64,000 bases of DNA. It comes from Dictyostelium discoideum. Taxonomy: Eukaryota. Location of the stretch: contig CM000150.2 in NCBI GenBank assembly GCA_000004695.1, positions 3,680,001 to 3,744,000 of the forward strand, read 5' to 3'. The position numbers and the translations under genes are program-made. This document shows positions 34,765-54,306 of this stretch, piece by piece. The notes under the pieces were generated by a model that worked only from the letters and a program-made list of their open reading frames with translations, was not told where the DNA came from and did not search any database. The stretch's first letter is position 1. Each line of letters begins with the position of its first letter.

Positions 34765-37700
34765 TAATTACCTTTGTAGTTGAAAATAAAGTAACTGATA
34801 ATGAAATTGAAGTTTCAACATTTGGTTTTAATTCAATAGATTGAAAAGGTGAACTTGTTATTGAACTATCATCACCTTCTGGGAATAAAAATAATGCATA
34901 TAATGGTTCACTTAACTTATTTTTAAAAGTGATAGTATCATGACAAACTTCACCAAGATCGGATTTTCTACCATTCATTCCAAAATCACAAATATATGGT
35001 GATACTGATACAGGTAAATCTGGATCATTACAATGTTGGAATATTGTATCTGCAATTAAAACATGTGTTTGAGTATTGGTTCTATATTTACCACTTTGTC
35101 CATTTCTATTTTTATAAGTTTTTAAATAATGTTCTAATGGTATTTCATTGGTAACAGGGTCAAGTAAAATATCAATAATATTTAAAGGATTTTCAATAAA
35201 ATCACCATGAGCTAATGATGGAACTAAATGAGGACTTGGTATTTTACTTTTTTTATACTCGAAAAATTCTTGATCAAAAGTATTTCTTTCAAATTGTCTA
35301 ACAAATAATTCACCCTCTGCTTCAATTTTAATATTTCCACCTCGTATAATATTAATATAATCTTCAACATCATCTTCATTTAATTCTGCACCATCACTTG
35401 AATCATCATATTCATCACTATAATCTTCAAAAAATGGTTCATTATTATTTATAATTGGTTTAATTTCTAAATTTTCCATTTCTAATGTTACATTTGTTTG
35501 TAATATTGCTCCTGCTGCTGTTGTTGTTGTTGTTGTTGTTGTTTCTACTGTGGTTGGTTCTAAATTATTATTTTCTGATTGTGTTTGAATATCAGAATTT
35601 CTATTTACTGTTATTGATATATGATTTGATGATGATTGTTCTTGATTTGAATTTATAATTAATGGTGTTGATGGTACTGGTGATTTATTATTTGATGGTT
35701 TCTTTGAATATAGTTCAACACCAAAAACAGCTATTTCAAGTCTTCTTCTTTTTTTATGTTTATAATATCTGGCACCAAAGAATACAATTAATATGGATAA
35801 TAAAACAAGTACTGTAACACAAATTGGAACAATTATTGGTAATAGATTTATTTTTTCAACTGGTATTGGATATTCAATTACAAGTGATGAATAAATTGCC
35901 ATTGATGTTAAGTATGTATTACCTCTTGTTGCAAATGAAATATTTATATTTTCCAATGAGTTGATATTATCGAAATTGAATGTTAAATTTTTGAAAATTG
36001 GTGCTGAATTACTCTCTAATGGTTCCAATAAGAATACTGGTTGATTTTCAATATAAATTGATAATGGTGTTGGTTGATCATCAATTGGTTGATGTATAAA
36101 AAATAATTGAATTTGATAATACTTTGTTTCACTATCAATTCTTGTTGTTATAGTTACTAATTCATTTGAATTAATTGATGTTATACCATTTAAAAATAAT
36201 TCATTAAGGTCATTTGATATATTTAATTTTGGTAAATTTGTTATATATTTTATATTATTTGAAATTGTACAATTATTGCTATTATCATTACTACTAATAC
36301 TACAACCTTTTTTGAATGAATTACCATCAACTGAAATTATTCCATTTTCAGTTGAGTTTTCCATTGACCAACCTGAATAAAATGAATAATTACTAAATAT
36401 TGTAATCTTTGGAAAATTGATAATATACATTATTTCTGAATCTCCTACATTCTTTAATTTCACTGTTACTTTTAAATTTACTGAACCATCATTTTTAAAT
36501 GTTAATGGAAATTTACACTCTTTATTTACACTCTCTGATATAGCAGATGATGTTATTGTTTCATTATCTGATTCGAGTTCACAAGTAATACGACTAATTA
36601 CTGGTGATATTATTACAAGTTTTACTATTAAATCTAATTTTCCACCAACTGGTATTTGATATTGTGAAGTTGGAAAAATGGAATCTACTAGAATAAATTC
36701 ATCAACATTTAAAAGTTCATAGAGGTATGGCACAATCGAAGAACCATAGATTTGATTATTTTGAAGTTGAAAATCATCGATATAAAAGCTTGAGTTTTTA
36801 ATTATGACAGCTGATGATTTAATACCATTATCACCTAATGATGGTGTTGTTGATGAACCAAAAAATGAATCATAAATATCCAACCTTTTAACTTGACCTG
36901 TCAATTTAAAATTATTAACACCAATAATATTTTTTAAAACTAAACCACTTCCTTTTAAATTTACAATGATTTTAGAAGAAATAGTTGAATCTTTAATTGT
37001 AAAAAAAGTATTCTTTAATTCTTCATCACTATTAACTATTAAAAAGTAATCTACTGGATTAATTGAAATTGGATTTACTAAGTTTTTACTAAAATCGATT
37101 GGCTCTTGTGAAAGACTTGGAACAACTATTGAATTAATATCGCATGGAGCGAAGCAATCTTTATCGAAACCTGTAACATTCTCTCTTGATATGAAATTAA
37201 AATTGTATAAAATTTTTTGGCCATTGAATATATCATTAGTTGAGAATATGTTTGGCGAAAGTGAATAGATACCATTGCCTTCATGTCCATAATCCATAAA
37301 TGCTGGTGATGTAGGAAATTCATTTGGTAAAACTAATGAGAAATAATTATTTGATGATTCTATATATTCTGTACCATACTGAGCAATCATACTTGAACCT
37401 GCTGTGCCCACTATTAAATTACCTGATATATTAACATTTGATTGAAAAAATACTAAAGATGATCTCGACGAACCAGTGTTTCCAATGATTACACTATTCT
37501 TTATTGTTACACTATTTGAAAACTCTATATATAGTGAGTTTCTAAATCTTTGATTTTTACCAATTATTATATCTGTCACATTATTTGGATTATCTGATGA
37601 GAAGGTTAGCTTTGTATCATCATATTCTTTATTTGAAGTTTTACCAATTGAATCAAGTAAGTAGTTTTCAATATGTAGTTTAGTATCACCTGTTATATAA

Positions 37701-38689
37701 ATTGATGATTTAGTTCTAGTTGATATTCCTCCAAACTTTAAAGAACCTGAATCATTGAAAAATAATTTTATATTTAGATCTGTTGTTGGTATTGTTAAAT
37801 CTTGCATCTCTAGTTTATTTTTGTTATAGGTAAATCTTGAAGTTCTAACATTTGGAAATGAGTCGCTAACTATAGATACATTGAATCCATTGAATGGATC
37901 TAATGTTGATATATCATTTACCTCTAGTACATTATCTTCTATCGGTTTAGCTGAATACAATATTCTTTGAGATCCAATAAGAGATATGGAACCACCTAAA
38001 CTAAGGATACCTGGGAGAAACCCAAAAGGATCAATTTTGATTATAGTTGAAGAAAGGTCAACAAATTGTAGCACGCAATTATTACAATGAAAATTACCAC
38101 CAGGCAAAACGATTATACCTCCTAAGGTAAGTGTTTGTTGTGATCCAGCTGTGAAACTACCTTCTATACATAGGATATTTATATATGATGGATGAATTGA
38201 CAAAAGAGGGTCTAAAGTCATGTTAGATCCTATAAATTAAGAGAAAAGAAATTGAATGATGTTAATAATTTATTTAGGTTTTAAAGAGTTATAGTATTTA
38301 AATAATATAATACCTTTTGTAATTTTAATATTTGCTTTTAAAAAAGGGCTTCCCGGGAAATTGTCTATGGAAAATTCGTTTGAATTTTTATTTTTTAATG
38401 CACTGTCGCATATATCGGGATAATATAATTCATGTGGCTCTACATTGACACTGTTTGCTTTTGTTGGTATTTTTGAAAAATTTTCAAACTTATTTATTCG
38501 ATATAAGTTATAGTAACCATCGGGTGTATAAACAAAACTACCTGTTTAATAAACAAAAAAAAAAAAAAAAAATTTTGTTGGTTACTGTTAAAGTATAAAT
38601 AAAATAATAAATTTGATCATACCTATAGAAAAAGTATTATTTATTGAAAATATTATTAATATTAATAAAATATATAAAATATAATTCAT
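33353..38689 (-). CDS. gdt-like receptor protein kinase (paralog A): signal peptide, about 1150-aa extracellular domain, one TM, cytoplasmic Ser/Thr-kinase-like domain; join(38689..38623,38541..38314,38229..34772,34666..34260,34188..34040,33957..33353)
   Basis: Exon 1 [22 protein letters not shown] (signal peptide), donor GTATGA. Exon 2, donor GTATTA. Exon 3 is the giant extracellular ORF with [25 protein letters not shown] + KHKKRRR; donor GTAATT at 34771. Exons 4-6 carry kinase subdomains I-XI ([40 protein letters not shown]) and a poly-Asn tail. All phases check. The architecture matches the Dictyostelium growth-differentiation-transition (gdt) family, but this assignment is from memory of that family. 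Confidence 0.7.
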
Positions 38690-43385: not shown

Positions 43386-47938
<4,553 letters not shown>

Positions 47939-48341
47939 TATTTTAAAATTTATAAATGTGGTATAACAAAAACACACATCCAAAAGGTTTGTTAGGATTT
48001 GTAGGATTTGATGGAAAAAAAAAAAAAAAAAAAAAAATGATAAAAAAAAAGAAAAAAAAAGAAAAAAAAAAATTAAAAAAAAAAATTGAAAAAAAAGAAA
48101 AAAAAAAAAATCAATTTTTTTAGAATCTTTGTGATTGAATCCTGAAAAAAAAAAAAAAATAAAAAAAAAAAAATGTGATTAAATCAAAATAAAAAAAAAA
48201 AAATTAAAAATAAAATTAACAAAAAAAAAAAAAAAAAAATTTAATTTGTGTGATAAAATATTTATGTCGAAATTTTTTTTGGTTGTGAAATTACTAACAA
48301 AAAGGATATTTTTTTTTTTTTTTTTTATTTTTTAATAAAAA

Positions 48342-48940
48342 TAGATTTTATTTTTATTTTGATTGAATCCAATTTGATAAATCTTGATTAAAAGCTTTGA
48401 ACCAATTTGAATTAATTGTAACCATTTCTAAATCTTGTTTAATTGAACGATCAGCAATTGGAACTGGATGATCTTTGAAAAAGTTGACGACTTCATTGTA
48501 TTGAGAATCATCCATTTTAGAGGTGAGACAACTACCAATGATACGACCAAACAAAGGAGAGTTATTAAAGGTTTCATCGATTTGATTAAAGTTTTTGGTA
48601 AAGTAAGCCCAAGCGAATTGACGAACACGATTTGGAAGGGTAAAGAAAACCATATAACTATCTTGACTTCTAACGGATGGAGATAAAGCGAAATTGAGGG
48701 CTTTTTCAACCAATTCCTCTTTTGGAGCCAAAGCAAGTACCAAAAGGTAAGAATTCTTTTCAGCAACTAAAGAAGATTTAAGATATTGATCAATGATGAT
48801 TTGTTGATCAGCTTCACCACCATTCTTTACGATTGTAGCAAGTACTGTAGAACGAATATCTGATGGTAAACTTGAAGAGTCTGCTTTGAAAGCTTCGAAT
48901 CTTTTCTTACATTCAGCAACGATCTGAACTAATTTGACTC
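48342..48940 (-). pseudogene. inverted, truncated duplicate of the 3' end (last 195 codons plus 12 nt of 3' UTR) of the M1 aminopeptidase gene at 51170-54083
   Basis: The minus strand 48940..48342 is about 97% identical at nucleotide level to plus strand 53505..54100. The encoded 129-aa tail differs at 3 residues (F/L, D/N, N/K). Similarity breaks off sharply on both sides, and an in-frame TAG lies 20 nt upstream of the homology. There is no start codon and no upstream exons. Confidence 0.75.
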
Positions 48941-50340
48941 TCTAAATTATCAATTTCTTGTCTCTTTATTGAAAATTGATAAAATATATTTGAATGTGGT
49001 TGTTCTTGAATTAATTGATTTGATATTTTATATTTTTCATCTACATCTTCTGTGAATATAATTCAATTTCTAAATTATCTCTTAAAATTTTATTAACATC
49101 TATAATCTATTATCACTACTACCTTGACTATTACTATTAACACCACCACTACTACTACTACTATTTATAATAATTAAAAAAATTATTAAAATTGAATATA
49201 TAAATAATTATTAAATATTATCATATTTTATATATATATATATTTATATAAAATTTTTATATGACTTTTTTTTTTTTTAAAAAAATTATTTTTTTAATTT
49301 TATTATTTTAATCTATTATTATTATTTTACTATTTTATTTTTGTATATACACAATAATATTATTAATTGTATAAATATTATATGTATTTTAAAAAAAAAA
49401 AAAAAAAAAATGAAATAGAAAAAATATAAAAGTATAACCCCCTTAAAATTTAGAATTTTTATTTTTTTAATTTTTTTTTTTTTTTATTTTTTTAATATAG
49501 ACAATCAAAAAGAAAACTAGAAATATTATAAACTACAACAATATCCTACAAAATCAATAATAATATCATAATAATCAACATTAACAATCAATTGGTTGAT
49601 ATTATTCATATTTAAAATAGGGGTTAAATAAATAAAAAAAAATTATATGGACATGTTGTGTTGGTGAGTTATCGTATGAACATGGGTGCTTGCGACCGCC
49701 AAGACTAAAGGATAAAAAAAGAATTTTATTCGGGTCATAATAAAAAGTGGTATTTAACACTGTTTTGGTATATCGTAAATAGCTTTGTGGTTCACAAAAA
49801 TTATAACAAATATAGCCTATCCTGTAGAGAATTTCGTAAAACTATTTTGGAAGATTTGAATGGTCACCAAACCCTTGGGGCGTACTTTCTAAGTTCAACT
49901 TTTTCAATTTTTTCTACTTTTTTTCAGATTTTTCAAAGAAAAAATAATGAAAAAAATTAATAAATATAAATAATATTCATTTTAATTACCAAACAATCTA
50001 ATTATTATTTTTATTTGTAGTTTTTAAAAAAAAAACCGTTAAAAAACTTTTCTGATTTTTTCCTATTTTCGATAAATATTTCTTTAAAAAAGATATTATT
50101 ATTTATGTTAATTGGGGTGTTAAATATTTCTTTAAAAATTTTTTTTTTGAAGTTGTGTTTTTTTAATTAAATAAATAAATTCATAATTATTTCCTTCTAT
50201 TCATAAAAAAAAATTGTAATTGATTATATGAATTGATCGATTTCCTTTTATTAATAAAAAAAACTCATAATTATCTACTTCTATTAATAAAAAAAAAAAA
50301 TAAATTCATAATTATTTCCTTCTTTTAATATAAAAAATGG

Positions 50341-50960
50341 TAAACTCTTGACCAACAAAAAAGCAAAAGACTCGACCAAATTTAATGTTGTATTCTCTTG
50401 GATTAGAACCTGTATAGATAACTTATTATATTTAATTAATGAAAATGAAGAACTTAAAGAAAAACGTACTAAAGATAAACATATAATTTGGGTAGGTGTT
50501 TAATATTAAATTAATAACATTATTTTTTTTTATTTTTTTTTGTGTTAGACTCTCTTATATTGGAAACAATATCTTCCAATTAATGAGATATGTGTTACTT
50601 TTGGTATTAGTCCAAAAACATTTCAAAATCACTATAGTCAAACCATTGAGTTGTATGCAAGGAAATAATGGAAAGAGATATGATAAACTTGTTGGATCAG
50701 TTAGTTTTTTAAAACATCCTATATCTAATGTGCTTTATCGTGCAATTGCTGCTGACTCTACATCTATTGATATTGAAACTCCCGCTGATTACCAAATCCA
50801 AAAAAAATACTATTCTGGTAAAAGCAAAAGTCATGTGGTCAAATTATTCGTAAACATGATAGTTTTCCAATCTTGGGTAATTATTTTAAATAACCTCGCT
50901 ACCTCTTACTTTAATACTTTGTTATTTTATTATTATTATTATTTTTTTTTTTTTATTATT
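50341..50960 (+). mobile_element. relic of a Harbinger/PIF-type (DDE_Tnp_4) transposase gene, spliced but frameshifted and truncated
   Basis: Exon-like block 50348..50491 (...KDSTKFNVVFSWIRTCIDNLLYLINENEELKEKRTKDKHIIW, donor GTAGGT). A 57-nt intron ends TGTGTTAG (50547..50548). Block 50549..50668 TLLYWKQYLPINEICVTFGISPKTFQNHYSQTIELYARK* has an HTH resembling the Harbinger N-terminal HTH. After a +1 shift, 50655..50950 reads RYDKLVGSVSFLKHPISNVLYRAIAADSTSIDIETPADYQIQKKYYSGKSKSHVVKLFVNMIVF, which matches the Harbinger core (...N(V/C)(I/L)GAIDGTHI.I..P.......(Y)YSGKKK.HT(I/L)K.Q(V)V.D) with D-to-N substitutions. There is no initiating ATG and no second Asp / Glu region. Confidence 0.45.
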
Positions 50961-51169
50961 ATAATAATTATATATTATTGGTATTTTTTATTTATAAAAA
51001 TTAAAATCTGGGCAATAAAAAAAAAAAATAAAAAAAAAAAATAAAATAAATAAAAAAAAATAAAAAAATTTTTATTTTTTTTTTTGTGATCATCAATTTA
51101 ATTTGTTTTAATTTATTTTATTTTTTTTAATTTTTTTTTTTTTAATTTTTTTTTTTTTAATTTTTTAAA

Positions 51170-52170
51170 ATGAAAAAAATAAATTTAATTTCGATTATTA
51201 TTTTTATAATTTCACTTGTTTATTTTAATTTTATACATATAAATAATAATATAGTTGAAAAAATGTGTGATCATAAACATTTAGTTGACAAAGTAGATAG
51301 ATTAGTATTACCAGATAATATCGTACCAAGTAAATACGATTTACATCTTAGACCAAATTTAAAGGATTTTGTATTCAGCGGCAAAGTTGACATTACAATC
51401 AATATTGTTAAACCAACCAAAAAAATCATTATCCATTCAATTGACATTGAAATTCAATCAGTAAAGATCTTAAATCAACAAGCTACTTCCGTTACCTACT
51501 ATGAACCAGAAGAAGTTGCAATTTTAGAATTCCAAGATGAATTACCAGTTACAGAAAATACAATTCTCTCCATTGATTTCACTGGTATTTTAAATGACAA
51601 ATTAAAAGGTTTCTATCGTTCAAAATATGTTGTCAATGGTGAAGATCGTTATATTGGTACCACTCAATTCGAAGCCACTGATGCTCGTCGTGCTTTCCCA
51701 TGTTTTGATGAACCTGCTTTAAAATCTTTCTTTAATATTAAAATCACTATTTCATCTCATTTAACTGCTCTTTCAAATATGGATACAACTTCTGTAATTG
51801 AAAATAATGATGGTACTAAAACCTTTATGTAAGTGTATTATATATATTATATTGAGAAAAAAAAAAAAAAAAAAGTACTAATTTTTTTTTTTTTCTTTAT
51901 TTTTTTTTTTAAAATTAAAAGTTTTGAACAAACTCCAAAGATGAGTACTTATATTGTTGCATTTATAGTTGGTGAATTCGATCATATTGAGTCACATACT
52001 AAAGAAGGTATTAGAGTTAGAGTTTACAAATGTGTTGGTAATAAAGAATCAAGTGAATTTGCTTTAGATGTTGCCACCAAATCATTATCTTATTTCATTG
52101 ATTACTTTGGTATTCCATATCCATTAAATAAATGTGATCACATTGCCATTCCAGTACGTATTTTTTATTA

Positions 52171-52229
<59 letters not shown>

Positions 52230-54083
52230 TAATCATATTCTTCTTAATAATAATATGTTAATTCCTTTAATAATATATAATGATACCATTACCAATCACC
52301 ATCACCATAGGACTTCTCCTTTGGAGCTATGGAAAACTGGGGTTTAATTACTTATCGTGAATCAATTTTATTAACATCAGATAAAACTACTCTTCGTACT
52401 AAACAAAGAATTGCTAATGTAATTGGTCATGAATTAGCACATCAATGGTTTGGTAATTTAGTAACAATGGAATGGTGGAGTCAATTATGGTTAAATGAAG
52501 GTTTTGCAACATTTATGGGATATTTATCAACTCATCATTTATTCCCAGAATGGGAAGTTTGGAATGATTTCTCTGATTGTTATAGAAATGGTGCACTTCG
52601 TTTAGATGCTTTAGAGAATTCACATGCAATTGAAGTACCAGTACGTCTTTCGTCTCAAATTTCAGAAATTTTTGATGCCATTTCTTATAACAAAGGTTCA
52701 TGTGTAATTCAAATGTTAGAGAGTCGTTTCGGTGAATCATTTAGAAAAGGTCTTCATCATTATTTGGATACTCATTCCTATAAGAATACCAATACCGATG
52801 ATCTTTGGGCTTCAATTTCATTGATTAGTGGTGTTGATGTTAAATCATTCATTGATTCATTCACAAAGTATCCAGGTTATCCAGTAGTTTCATTCACTCC
52901 AACTTCAACTGAAGGTACCTTTGAATTATCTCAAAAGAAATTTAGATTACAAGGTTCTGAGAAATCTGATGATCCAATTTGGAATTGTTTCATTAGATTC
53001 CAAACTGGTAATGCTGGTCAACATGAATTCATCTTGGAGAAGAAATCCGATACCGTAACAATTCCAAACTTTAAAAATGGTGATTGGATTAAACCAAACT
53101 ATGGTCAAACTGGTTATTTCCGTATTGCCTACTCACCTGAAACTATCAAAGCATTGGTTCCAAAGATTAAATCAATGGAAATTCCAACTCCAGATCGTTT
53201 AGGTTTATTATCAGATGTTTTCAATCTTTGCAAGGCACACACTTCTTCCATCTCTGCCTATATGGATTTAGTTTTGGCTTTTGAAGATGAAAAGGAAAGT
53301 AATGTTTGGGATTTCATTATCGATAGTCTTGGTTCTATTCAAACTTTAATTGAAGATCAACCATACTCAAGTAGATTCAATGAAATCTTTGTTCAACTTT
53401 TGAAACCACTTTCAAAACGTTTAGGTTTCGAGCCAACCAAAGGTGAACCATCTTCAGATACCTTGTTAAGAGATAAAGTAAACACTAAATTGGGTATGTT
53501 GGGTGATGCTGATATCGTTGCTGAATGTAAGAAAAGATTCGAAGCTTTCAAAGCAGACTCTTCAAGTTTACCATCAGATATTCGTTCTACAGTACTTGCT
53601 ACAATCGTAAAGAATGGTGGTGAAGCTGATCAACAAATCATCATTGATCAATATCTTAAATCTTCTTTAGTCGCTGAAAAGAATTCTTACCTTTTGGTAC
53701 TTGCTTTGGCTCCAAAAGAGGAATTGGTTGAAAAAGCCCTCAATTTCGCTTTATCTCCATCCGTTAGAAGTCAAGATAGTTATATGGTTTTCTTTACCCT
53801 CCCAAATCGTGTTCGTCAATTCGCTTGGGCTTACCTCACCAAAAACTTTAATCAAATCAACGAAACATTTAAAAACTCTCCTTTGTTTGGTCGTATCATT
53901 GGTAGTTGTCTCACCTCTAAAATGGATGATTCTCAATACAATGAAGTCGTCAACTTTTTCAAAGATCATCCAGTTCCAATTGCTGATCGTTCAATTAAAC
54001 AAGATTTAGAAATGGTTACAATTAATTCAAATTGGTTCAAAGCTTTTAATCAAGATTTATCAAATTGGATTCAATCAAAATAA
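51170..54083 (+). CDS. M1-family zinc aminopeptidase, puromycin-sensitive aminopeptidase (NPEPPS)-like; join(51170..51828,51922..52153,52311..54083)
   Basis: Donors GTAAGT (51829) and GTACGT (52154). Acceptors AAAAG (51920..51921) and CCATAG (52309..52310). Phases 2 and 0. Exon junctions restore FEQTPKMSTYIVAFIVGEFDHIE and HIAIP|DFSFGAMENWGLITYRE (GAMEN exopeptidase motif). HELAHQWFGNLVTMEWWSQLWLNEGFA is the HEXXH(X)18E zinc site. The protein is colinear with human NPEPPS to the C-terminus. The N-terminus MKKINLISIIIFIISLVYFNF is hydrophobic. Confidence 0.85.
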
Positions 54084-54306
54084 AAATAAAATCTCTTACA
54101 ATGAAAGATCTTTGTTTTAATAATTGATAGTGATAAAAAAAAATGAGACGAAAACTAAAATAAACATCAAATTATTGTTTTCCTTTTTAAAACACAAATT
54201 TTATTTTTTTAAATTTATTGTTTTGGTTAAAAAAAAAATTGCTTTTTTTTTTTGTTTTTGCGTTCATCCAGAAGTATAGATTTATTTTTGGTAACATATG
54301 AATGTA

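Follow-up and report, generated by a model that had tools for sequence, protein, structure and literature searches.

How does a gene come to have a truncated, inverted and near-identical copy of its own 3' end close by, and is such a copy as young as its identity suggests? This question is raised by a 64,000-nucleotide stretch of Dictyostelium discoideum AX4 DNA (hereafter the window), which contains a full-length M1 aminopeptidase gene (XP_646344.1; UniProt Q55CY7; 856 aa) and, on the other strand, a fragment repeating its end. An initial annotation, made from the sequence of the window, took the fragment for a young segmental duplication or a repair-mediated insertion. In the AX4 reference, the fragment is already annotated as a hypothetical gene, DDB_G0269852 (XP_646343.1; UniProt Q55CY8; 215 aa), under the name "ERAP1-like C-terminal domain-containing protein", and the window encodes both exons of this model exactly. 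Literature searches by gene, protein and UniProt identifiers returned no paper on the fragment gene or its parent in the library searched, and nothing relevant came up for a publication describing the new assemblies.

Results

Extent and reality of the inverted repeat

Pairwise alignment and a repeat scan of the AX4 window agreed on one long inverted repeat in the region, with arms of 593 nt (48331-48923 and 53514-54106) that are 98% complementary and are separated by a spacer of 4590 nt. BLAST against a second assembly delimited an ungapped core of 584 nt (48340-48923 in the minus sense against 53514-54097) with 98.5-98.6% identity. The arms differ at 8 of 581 compared sites (98.6% identity), namely, in the numbering of the parent, at 53672, 53801, 53835, 53837, 53859, 53861, 53867 and 53873, and the translated fragment matches parent residues 668-856 at 186 of 189 positions. 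Both arms contain the last 189 codons of the M1 aminopeptidase with its stop codon, followed by 14 nt of 3' flank (Table 1).

The truncated, inverted and near-identical copy described in the initial annotation is therefore real, as established by the repeat scan, by BLAST and by the second assembly, while several of its dimensions had to be adjusted. The near-identity stood, but the figure of 97% was slightly too low; the 195 codons given as homologous correspond to the frame that is open up to an upstream TAG, of which 189 are homologous; and the shared 3' flank measures 14 nt instead of 12 nt. The in-frame stop said to lie just 5' of the homology was indeed found, 18 nt upstream of it. Likewise, all upstream exons are absent from the copy, as tblastn detected residues 668-856 (at 48923-48357) and nothing further of the enzyme anywhere in the 64-kb window; hence the homology does not extend over the whole gene, nor does the identity, at 98.6%, come anywhere near values below 90%. 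The short open reading frames at 48428-48766 and 53701-54009 are, as had been supposed, the same sequence read out of frame.

That the repeat was collapsed or mis-joined in the reference has a probability close to nil. We found nothing in favour of such an artefact, and the same structure, with an identical fragment, is present on an independent 3.2-Mb contig of D. discoideum (GCA_054883475.1), which is 99.7-99.9% identical to the window and matches it without any mismatch over a 6.9-kb stretch including the fragment; furthermore, related relics occur in three other assemblies. The neighbouring single-exon GTPase of the window is also encoded identically on this contig.

Table 1. Features of the aminopeptidase locus, in window coordinates
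Feature	Position	Strand	Remarks
Ancestral aminopeptidase 3' flank, equal to the K upstream region	48100..48339	-	Colinear with the D. citrinum flank and with the ACTFIW and ACTFIY relic flanks
Aminopeptidase 3' relic (left arm)	48340..48923	-	Last 189 codons, stop 48354-48356, 14 nt of flank; exon 2 of DDB_G0269852
Sequence abutting the inner end of the relic	48924..49381	-	84% identical to ACTFIW L004 9431-9880
In-frame TAG 5' of the relic homology	48942..48944	-	Doubles as splice acceptor in the AX4 gene model
Filler between relic and inverted promoter	49382..51068		No homolog in any other fetched locus
Predicted exon 1 of DDB_G0269852	49550..49609	-	20 codons (MNNINQLIVNVDYYDIIIDF); GTAGGA donor, implied 608-nt intron
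Full aminopeptidase gene, promoter to stop+14	51069..54097	+	Annotated CDS 51263-54083; a further ATG upstream, in frame, at 51170
3' end of the complete M1 aminopeptidase gene, matching the relic (right arm)	53514..54097	+
Patch with 7 of the 8 arm-to-arm differences	53801..53873	+	9.6% difference vs 0.2% elsewhere; relic equivalent ~48564-48636
AX4-specific inversion junction	54094..54098		Tail '...AAAATCT' -C(54095)- 'TTACAATGAAAG'; microhomology <=3 nt

Ancestral gene order and position of the fragment

The window was compared with the orthologous loci of D. citrinum, D. firmibasis and D. dimigraforme, three sister species with a single aminopeptidase each. The order in D. citrinum is LYR - Rac - COX6B (minus strand) - aminopeptidase (plus) - a kinase-domain gene (plus), here referred to as K; in D. 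firmibasis, the aminopeptidase is separated from the next large gene by an acyltransferase gene, and at the D. dimigraforme locus no Rac gene is called. One colinear block connects D. citrinum (L009 12358-14725) with the window from 48929 down to 46492, passing through the fragment and its stop codon into the region upstream of K, and the D. citrinum gene body (L009 9764-12942) aligns with window 51067-54092 on the strand opposite to both flanks. D. dimigraforme gives the same picture, and in D. firmibasis the gene body is found on the strand opposite to the upstream flank.

Since the fragment is colinear with the 3' end of a single-copy gene in D. citrinum and D. dimigraforme, it was not inserted at its site. 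Judged by this colinearity, the fragment and its 3' flank sit where the gene ended ancestrally, in its original orientation, and the inverted part is the full gene of AX4. A processed retrocopy, for which a poly(A) tail, target-site duplications and an unrelated site were taken as criteria, was also considered and rejected, because the copy runs on into the flank of the orthologous gene at the ancestral site.

Inversion of the full gene in the AX4 lineage

Among the loci compared, inversion of the full gene is confined to AX4 and the near-identical ACTFIT assembly. The ancestral orientation was found in ACTFIW, in the JBTAPF assembly and in the "cf. discoideum" isolates ACTFIY and ACTFIZ, and the AX4 gene is inverted with respect to D. 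citrinum, D. firmibasis, D. dimigraforme and four other assemblies of the D. discoideum group. One inversion junction could be resolved, 14 nt past the aminopeptidase stop codon. In all other strains, TTACAATGAAAG is located just upstream of the aminopeptidase promoter, and uninverted strains read "...AAAACAAAGACCTTTCATTGTAA", followed by a T-rich tract and the promoter; in the window, from 54098 onward and on the other strand, the sequence that ends in AAAACAAAGACCTTTCATTGTAA in these strains is fused to the gene tail. This junction of promoter-upstream sequence with the aminopeptidase tail was seen only in the window and in L001. Position 54095 is a C in the AX4 full gene only, and an A in every other copy of the D. 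discoideum group. With so little microhomology (at most 3 nt), the resolved junction looks like the product of end-joining. The promoter-side junction, near 51060, falls into A/T homopolymer-rich, low-complexity sequence.

Several other interpretations of these sequences were discarded. Candidate AX4-type junctions in L005, L007 and L008 consisted of matches to the promoter-upstream sequence and the T-rich tract only. Recombination between the arms was considered as a means of re-inverting the gene in the other strains; the uninverted strains lack an AX4-type junction and still possess a relic next to K. Finally, a descent of the AX4 full gene from an inverted partial copy present in ACTFIW was rejected, as its exons 1-2 are 2.9% distant from the ACTFIW full gene and 3.4% from the inverted copy.

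About 2.1 kb of filler lies between the relic and the inverted promoter, of which only 48924-49381 has a homolog elsewhere among the fetched loci. At 50549-50880 (plus strand), the filler displays weak co-linear matches to HTH_Tnp_4 (E 0.02) and DDE_Tnp_4 (E 0.008), and this segment, which shortly precedes the inverted promoter, resembles what is left of a truncated Harbinger/PIF-like transposase. The ACTFIT annotation joins this ORF to the aminopeptidase (P0131, 937 aa). A piggyBac-like identity of 49709-49957 was dropped, as it received no Pfam support.

The full-length gene itself showed two further peculiarities. First, the aminopeptidase of AX4 and ACTFIT has precisely lost an intron at 52435|52436, where 'GGTCATGAATT|AGCACATCAA' is continuous, inside the HELAH zinc-binding motif; a GTAAGT...AG intron is kept at this point in ACTFIW, JBTAPF, ACTFIY, D. 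citrinum and D. firmibasis. Intron loss and inversion belong to the same lineage. Second, the in-frame ATG at 51170 adds a hydrophobic N-terminus (MKKINLISIIIFIISLVYFNF...; window 51170-51262, plus strand), which is conserved in the protein models of D. firmibasis and D. dimigraforme and in the ORFs of other isolates, and which is omitted from the AX4 model, beginning at MCDHKH. By virtue of this N-terminus, the aminopeptidase may be membrane-anchored or secreted.

Relics in other isolates

ACTFIW, ACTFIY and ACTFIZ each combine an uninverted full gene with one or more K-adjacent relics, which differ in length and which in two of the three isolates are visibly broken. The ACTFIW relic begins at parent coordinate 53468, 46 nt deeper in the gene, and has suffered an internal deletion of ~198 nt as well as a frameshift, while that of ACTFIY consists of the last 85 nt beside K, followed by an inverted 220-nt piece. 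ACTFIZ contains a whole array, aminopeptidase - K'' - X'' - relic1 - K' - relic2 - K - X, the relics of which carry internal deletions. Decay is evident from these lesions in the sister lineages. Furthermore, ACTFIZ relic 2 extends back to an aminopeptidase intron and is directly joined to a copy of K that is cut in its transmembrane-coding sequence (LKIALPICLSLALL); this structure bears the signature of a tandem duplication whose unit reached from inside the aminopeptidase into K. A genomic origin of the relics is likewise apparent from the native flank that they kept, from the start of ACTFIZ relic 2 in an intron and from its abutment on a truncated K copy.

The inner junction of the AX4 relic reads "...GAGAGTCAAATTAGTTCAG|ATCGTTGCTG...", and in ACTFIW the same left and right sequences are found ~420 nt apart, with 46 nt more of aminopeptidase homology included in the interval. 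Judged from this alignment, the AX4 boundary at 48923|48924 is a secondary deletion junction of ~420 nt, and since the junction sequence is shared apart from these ~420 nt, the AX4 and ACTFIW relics are one and the same by descent. The relics of ACTFIY and ACTFIZ probably, though not provably, go back to the same event; independent duplications are conceivable, as K was also duplicated in D. dimigraforme, where no aminopeptidase relic is present. Most likely, the relic predates the split of the divergent isolates. The notion that its inverted orientation resulted from the duplication was rejected, as the inversion of the full gene in the AX4 lineage came later.

According to a different model, the 584 nt were duplicated by the inversion of the aminopeptidase gene itself, through staggered breaks. 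Such a model would account for inverted copies at or near both ends of the inverted segment, and one arm does end exactly on the inversion junction. However, it predicts a single copy in uninverted relatives, whereas the uninverted ACTFIW, ACTFIY and ACTFIZ already carry both the full gene and a K-adjacent relic; moreover, the relic reached further into the gene in relatives, starting at 53468 in ACTFIW and at an intron in ACTFIZ, and ~2.1 kb of unrelated filler intervenes between relic and promoter. We therefore regard duplication by staggered breaks as very unlikely.

Several observations on the surroundings of the relics are worth recording. K has been tandemly duplicated recurrently within the clade, with three copies of K and two aminopeptidase relics in ACTFIZ (L012 and L010) and two copies without an aminopeptidase relic in D. 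dimigraforme (L011), and an older paralog of K, about 70-80% identical, is located in the window at ~35860-37720. Gene K also contains a long ATT/AAT run (window 46384-46500, minus strand), corresponding to a poly-asparagine tract of ~40 residues; such tracts are typical of Dictyostelium coding sequence. In addition, ACTFIW has an inverted repeat of >2.6 kb with 90% identity (L007 3643-6284 and L004 1-2622), each arm of which comprises 1.2 kb of other sequence in addition to exons 1-2 and the promoter of the aminopeptidase. These arms flank the full-length gene and LTR-retrotransposon genes, and represent a second, independent inverted duplication at the locus.

Concerted evolution of relic and full gene

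In three of three genomes (AX4, ACTFIZ and ACTFIW), the relic resembles the resident full gene more than any other copy. Relic and resident full gene differ at 8/581 sites in AX4, at 7/553 for relic 2 of ACTFIZ and at 9/379 in ACTFIW, compared with 13/379 to 21/553 between relics of different genomes and 16-21 of 581 between the full gene of AX4 and those of other strains. At five sites, all of them third codon positions (53588, 53591, 53630, 53912 and 53981), both AX4 copies share a base that is absent from the other copies of the D. discoideum group, full genes and relics alike; one of these bases, the C at 53912, recurs in D. citrinum. The arm-to-arm differences are strongly clustered, with 7 in 73 nt versus 1 in the remaining 508 nt (p about 1e-4 from random placements). 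Furthermore, AX4 and ACTFIW show 10-16% difference in the non-coding DNA adjoining the relic, from which an unconverted neutral relic would be expected to have diverged by several per cent. From these site patterns, with a small number of diagnostic sites, we infer that the near-identity of relic and full gene is best explained by gene conversion, and we read the 73-nt patch as a stretch that was missed by the latest conversion tract. The pattern recurs in strains with the two copies in direct orientation, so that conversion would be independent of the inverted arrangement.

When polarised with the outgroups, the private changes of the relic are N to D, K to N and one synonymous change (two of three non-synonymous), whereas those of the full gene are mostly synonymous, plus F to L; the relic-specific residues are F, D and N, in the contexts AYFTK and QIDETFNNSPLFGR. 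Although the numbers are small, this pattern fits a constrained gene and an unconstrained relic.

These data also bear on the age proposed in the initial annotation. A recent inverted segmental duplication, or an insertion templated by the parent's 3' end during repair, would readily explain an identity of 98.6% over 584 nt, as well as the fact that the two AX4 copies are each other's closest relatives. Yet the fragment, with its flank, occupies the ancestral site, colinear with the single-copy 3' end of the outgroups, and the rearranged flank is the one unique to the full gene. In addition, relics already exist in uninverted isolates, the AX4 and ACTFIW relics share junction-proximal sequence and are a deletion of ~420 nt apart, and differences as strongly clustered as those between the arms are not expected of random recent mutations. 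A young event is thus largely refuted and, in our judgement, most improbable.

Coding potential of the fragment

The AX4 relic retains an uninterrupted frame with no lesion inside its 584 nt, and two annotation pipelines call a gene at this place. The DDB_G0269852 model, however, depends on a GTAGGA donor and a 608-nt intron, the acceptor of which is the in-frame TAG, and the pipeline of the newer assembly predicts a different protein (P0001), whose 5' exons are entirely unlike those of the AX4 model. Within the relic frame itself, no start codon is encountered ahead of residue 97. M1 puromycin-sensitive-like aminopeptidases combine Peptidase_M1_N, Peptidase_M1 and ERAP1_C domains, and the fragment is 98% identical to residues 668-856 of the parent; in contrast to these enzymes, it possesses neither Peptidase_M1_N nor the domain with the HEXXH-E motif, and a Pfam scan of P0125 recovered positions 144-316 of 318 of ERAP1_C only, that is, its C-terminal half. 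With this domain content, the predicted product cannot be a peptidase. A functional M1 aminopeptidase paralog was accordingly rejected, the HEXXH(18)E zinc site and the Peptidase_M1 catalytic domain being outside the copy (the catalytic region of the parent, HELAHQ...E, is situated around residues 300-330 of P0129, beyond the copied part). Because of the 20-codon first exon with its splicing requirements, the conflicting 5' exons and the partial ERAP1_C domain, the protein-coding model is weak; it is probably an ab initio artefact.

It is nevertheless conceivable that DDB_G0269852 is a real gene, giving rise to a putative free ERAP1_C half-domain protein or to an antisense, hairpin or decoy RNA that modulates the aminopeptidase. 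The open frame and the gene models in two annotations speak for it, and with arms so nearly identical, a transcript reading through in antisense from the region upstream of K would base-pair with aminopeptidase mRNA. On the other hand, the ORF is not conserved, as the frame is shifted, deleted or broken up in the relics of ACTFIW and ACTFIY; a 5' exon is not conserved either, and the two models disagree completely upstream; the AX4 model requires the GTAGGA donor and the long intron; only half of a Pfam domain is present; and two of the three private changes of the relic are non-synonymous. On balance, we consider a functional gene unlikely. Exact look-ups of the 129-aa and 99-aa relic ORFs in an assembly collection (NCBI, ENA, JGI and Logan public-run assemblies) produced no match, a result that is uninformative on expression. 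As to the protein searches, a word-indexed search with the 195-aa fragment missed the 98%-identical parent, which was recovered by a longer query and a cluster listing.

Discussion

Taken together, the comparisons indicate that the fragment is probably a decaying and most likely non-functional relic of a duplication junction, and not a recent copy. The following history would account for its present form. The comparison with the sister species shows an ancestral order Rac - COX6B - aminopeptidase - K, in which the aminopeptidase pointed its 3' end at K. Next, an ancestor of the D. discoideum group would have undergone a tandem duplication with a unit from inside the aminopeptidase into K, seen directly in ACTFIZ and inferred for AX4, which left a 5'-truncated relic before an intact K, with the full gene upstream. 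The relic subsequently eroded in a lineage-specific manner, so that AX4 was left with the last 584 nt following the ~420-nt deletion at the inner end, as apparent from the alignment with ACTFIW. In the AX4 lineage, the full gene would then have been inverted by one break 14 nt beyond the stop codon and another immediately before the promoter, which converted a direct into an inverted repeat; the orientation and one junction are directly visible, and breakage with end-joining is the mechanism suggested by them. Finally, gene conversion would keep relic and full gene near-identical, save for the 73-nt patch.

Each component of this history has well-known counterparts. Like unprocessed pseudogene fragments at the junctions of tandem duplications, the relic is 5'-truncated, keeps its native 3' flank and has neither promoter nor catalytic domains, and the relics of the sister lineages decay, as such fragments do, by deletions and frameshifts, the K copy of ACTFIZ being truncated at the same junction. 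In contrast to them, the AX4 relic still has an uninterrupted frame and an identity of 98.6%, and it is inverted because the parent, not the relic, was flipped. Gene conversion from arm to arm is known in inverted repeats and palindromes, such as the palindromes of the human Y chromosome and the inverted repeats of plastids. As there, the arms within a genome are closer than those between genomes, derived states are shared and identity is mosaic; here, however, the arms measure only 0.58 kb with a 4.6-kb spacer, and one arm is part of a working gene whereas the other is a dead fragment. Inversions by staggered breaks, with inverted duplications at the breakpoints, have been described for Drosophila; they likewise place inverted copies at the edges of the inverted segment, but the single copy in uninverted relatives that characterises them is not found here. 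Thus, the object belongs to ordinary classes, combining a pseudogene fragment at a duplication junction, concerted evolution by gene conversion and a lineage-specific end-joining inversion. While the history of the locus is new, in that no literature on it was found, its kind is well known and the ORF was already in databases, and the locus does not indicate a new biological mechanism.

The arms are, by their length and similarity, suitable as a substrate for recombination, and crossing-over between them would flip the 4.6-kb spacer and restore an intact gene in ancestral orientation. If this were to occur, the spacer, with the promoter and the 5' two-thirds of the gene, would turn over, and the resulting intact gene would carry the three amino-acid variants of the relic. 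Although quite speculative, one may imagine that the arms are an active substrate of this sort, making the locus a reversible two-state system, or that antisense RNA from K-side read-through feeds Dictyostelium RNAi against the aminopeptidase; we assign only a slim chance to these scenarios.

For the annotation of D. discoideum, our reading has a practical consequence, namely that DDB_G0269852 / Q55CY8, listed as a "hypothetical protein" but very probably the relic of a duplication, deserves a flag as a pseudogene candidate. It also cautions against inferring youth from the close match of a gene to a fragment in its neighbourhood. Finally, the locus emerges as a hotspot of rearrangement, with recurrent tandem duplication of K and, in the laboratory-strain lineage, inversion of the neighbouring gene, and such rearrangements matter wherever AX4 serves as the coordinate reference for wild isolates.
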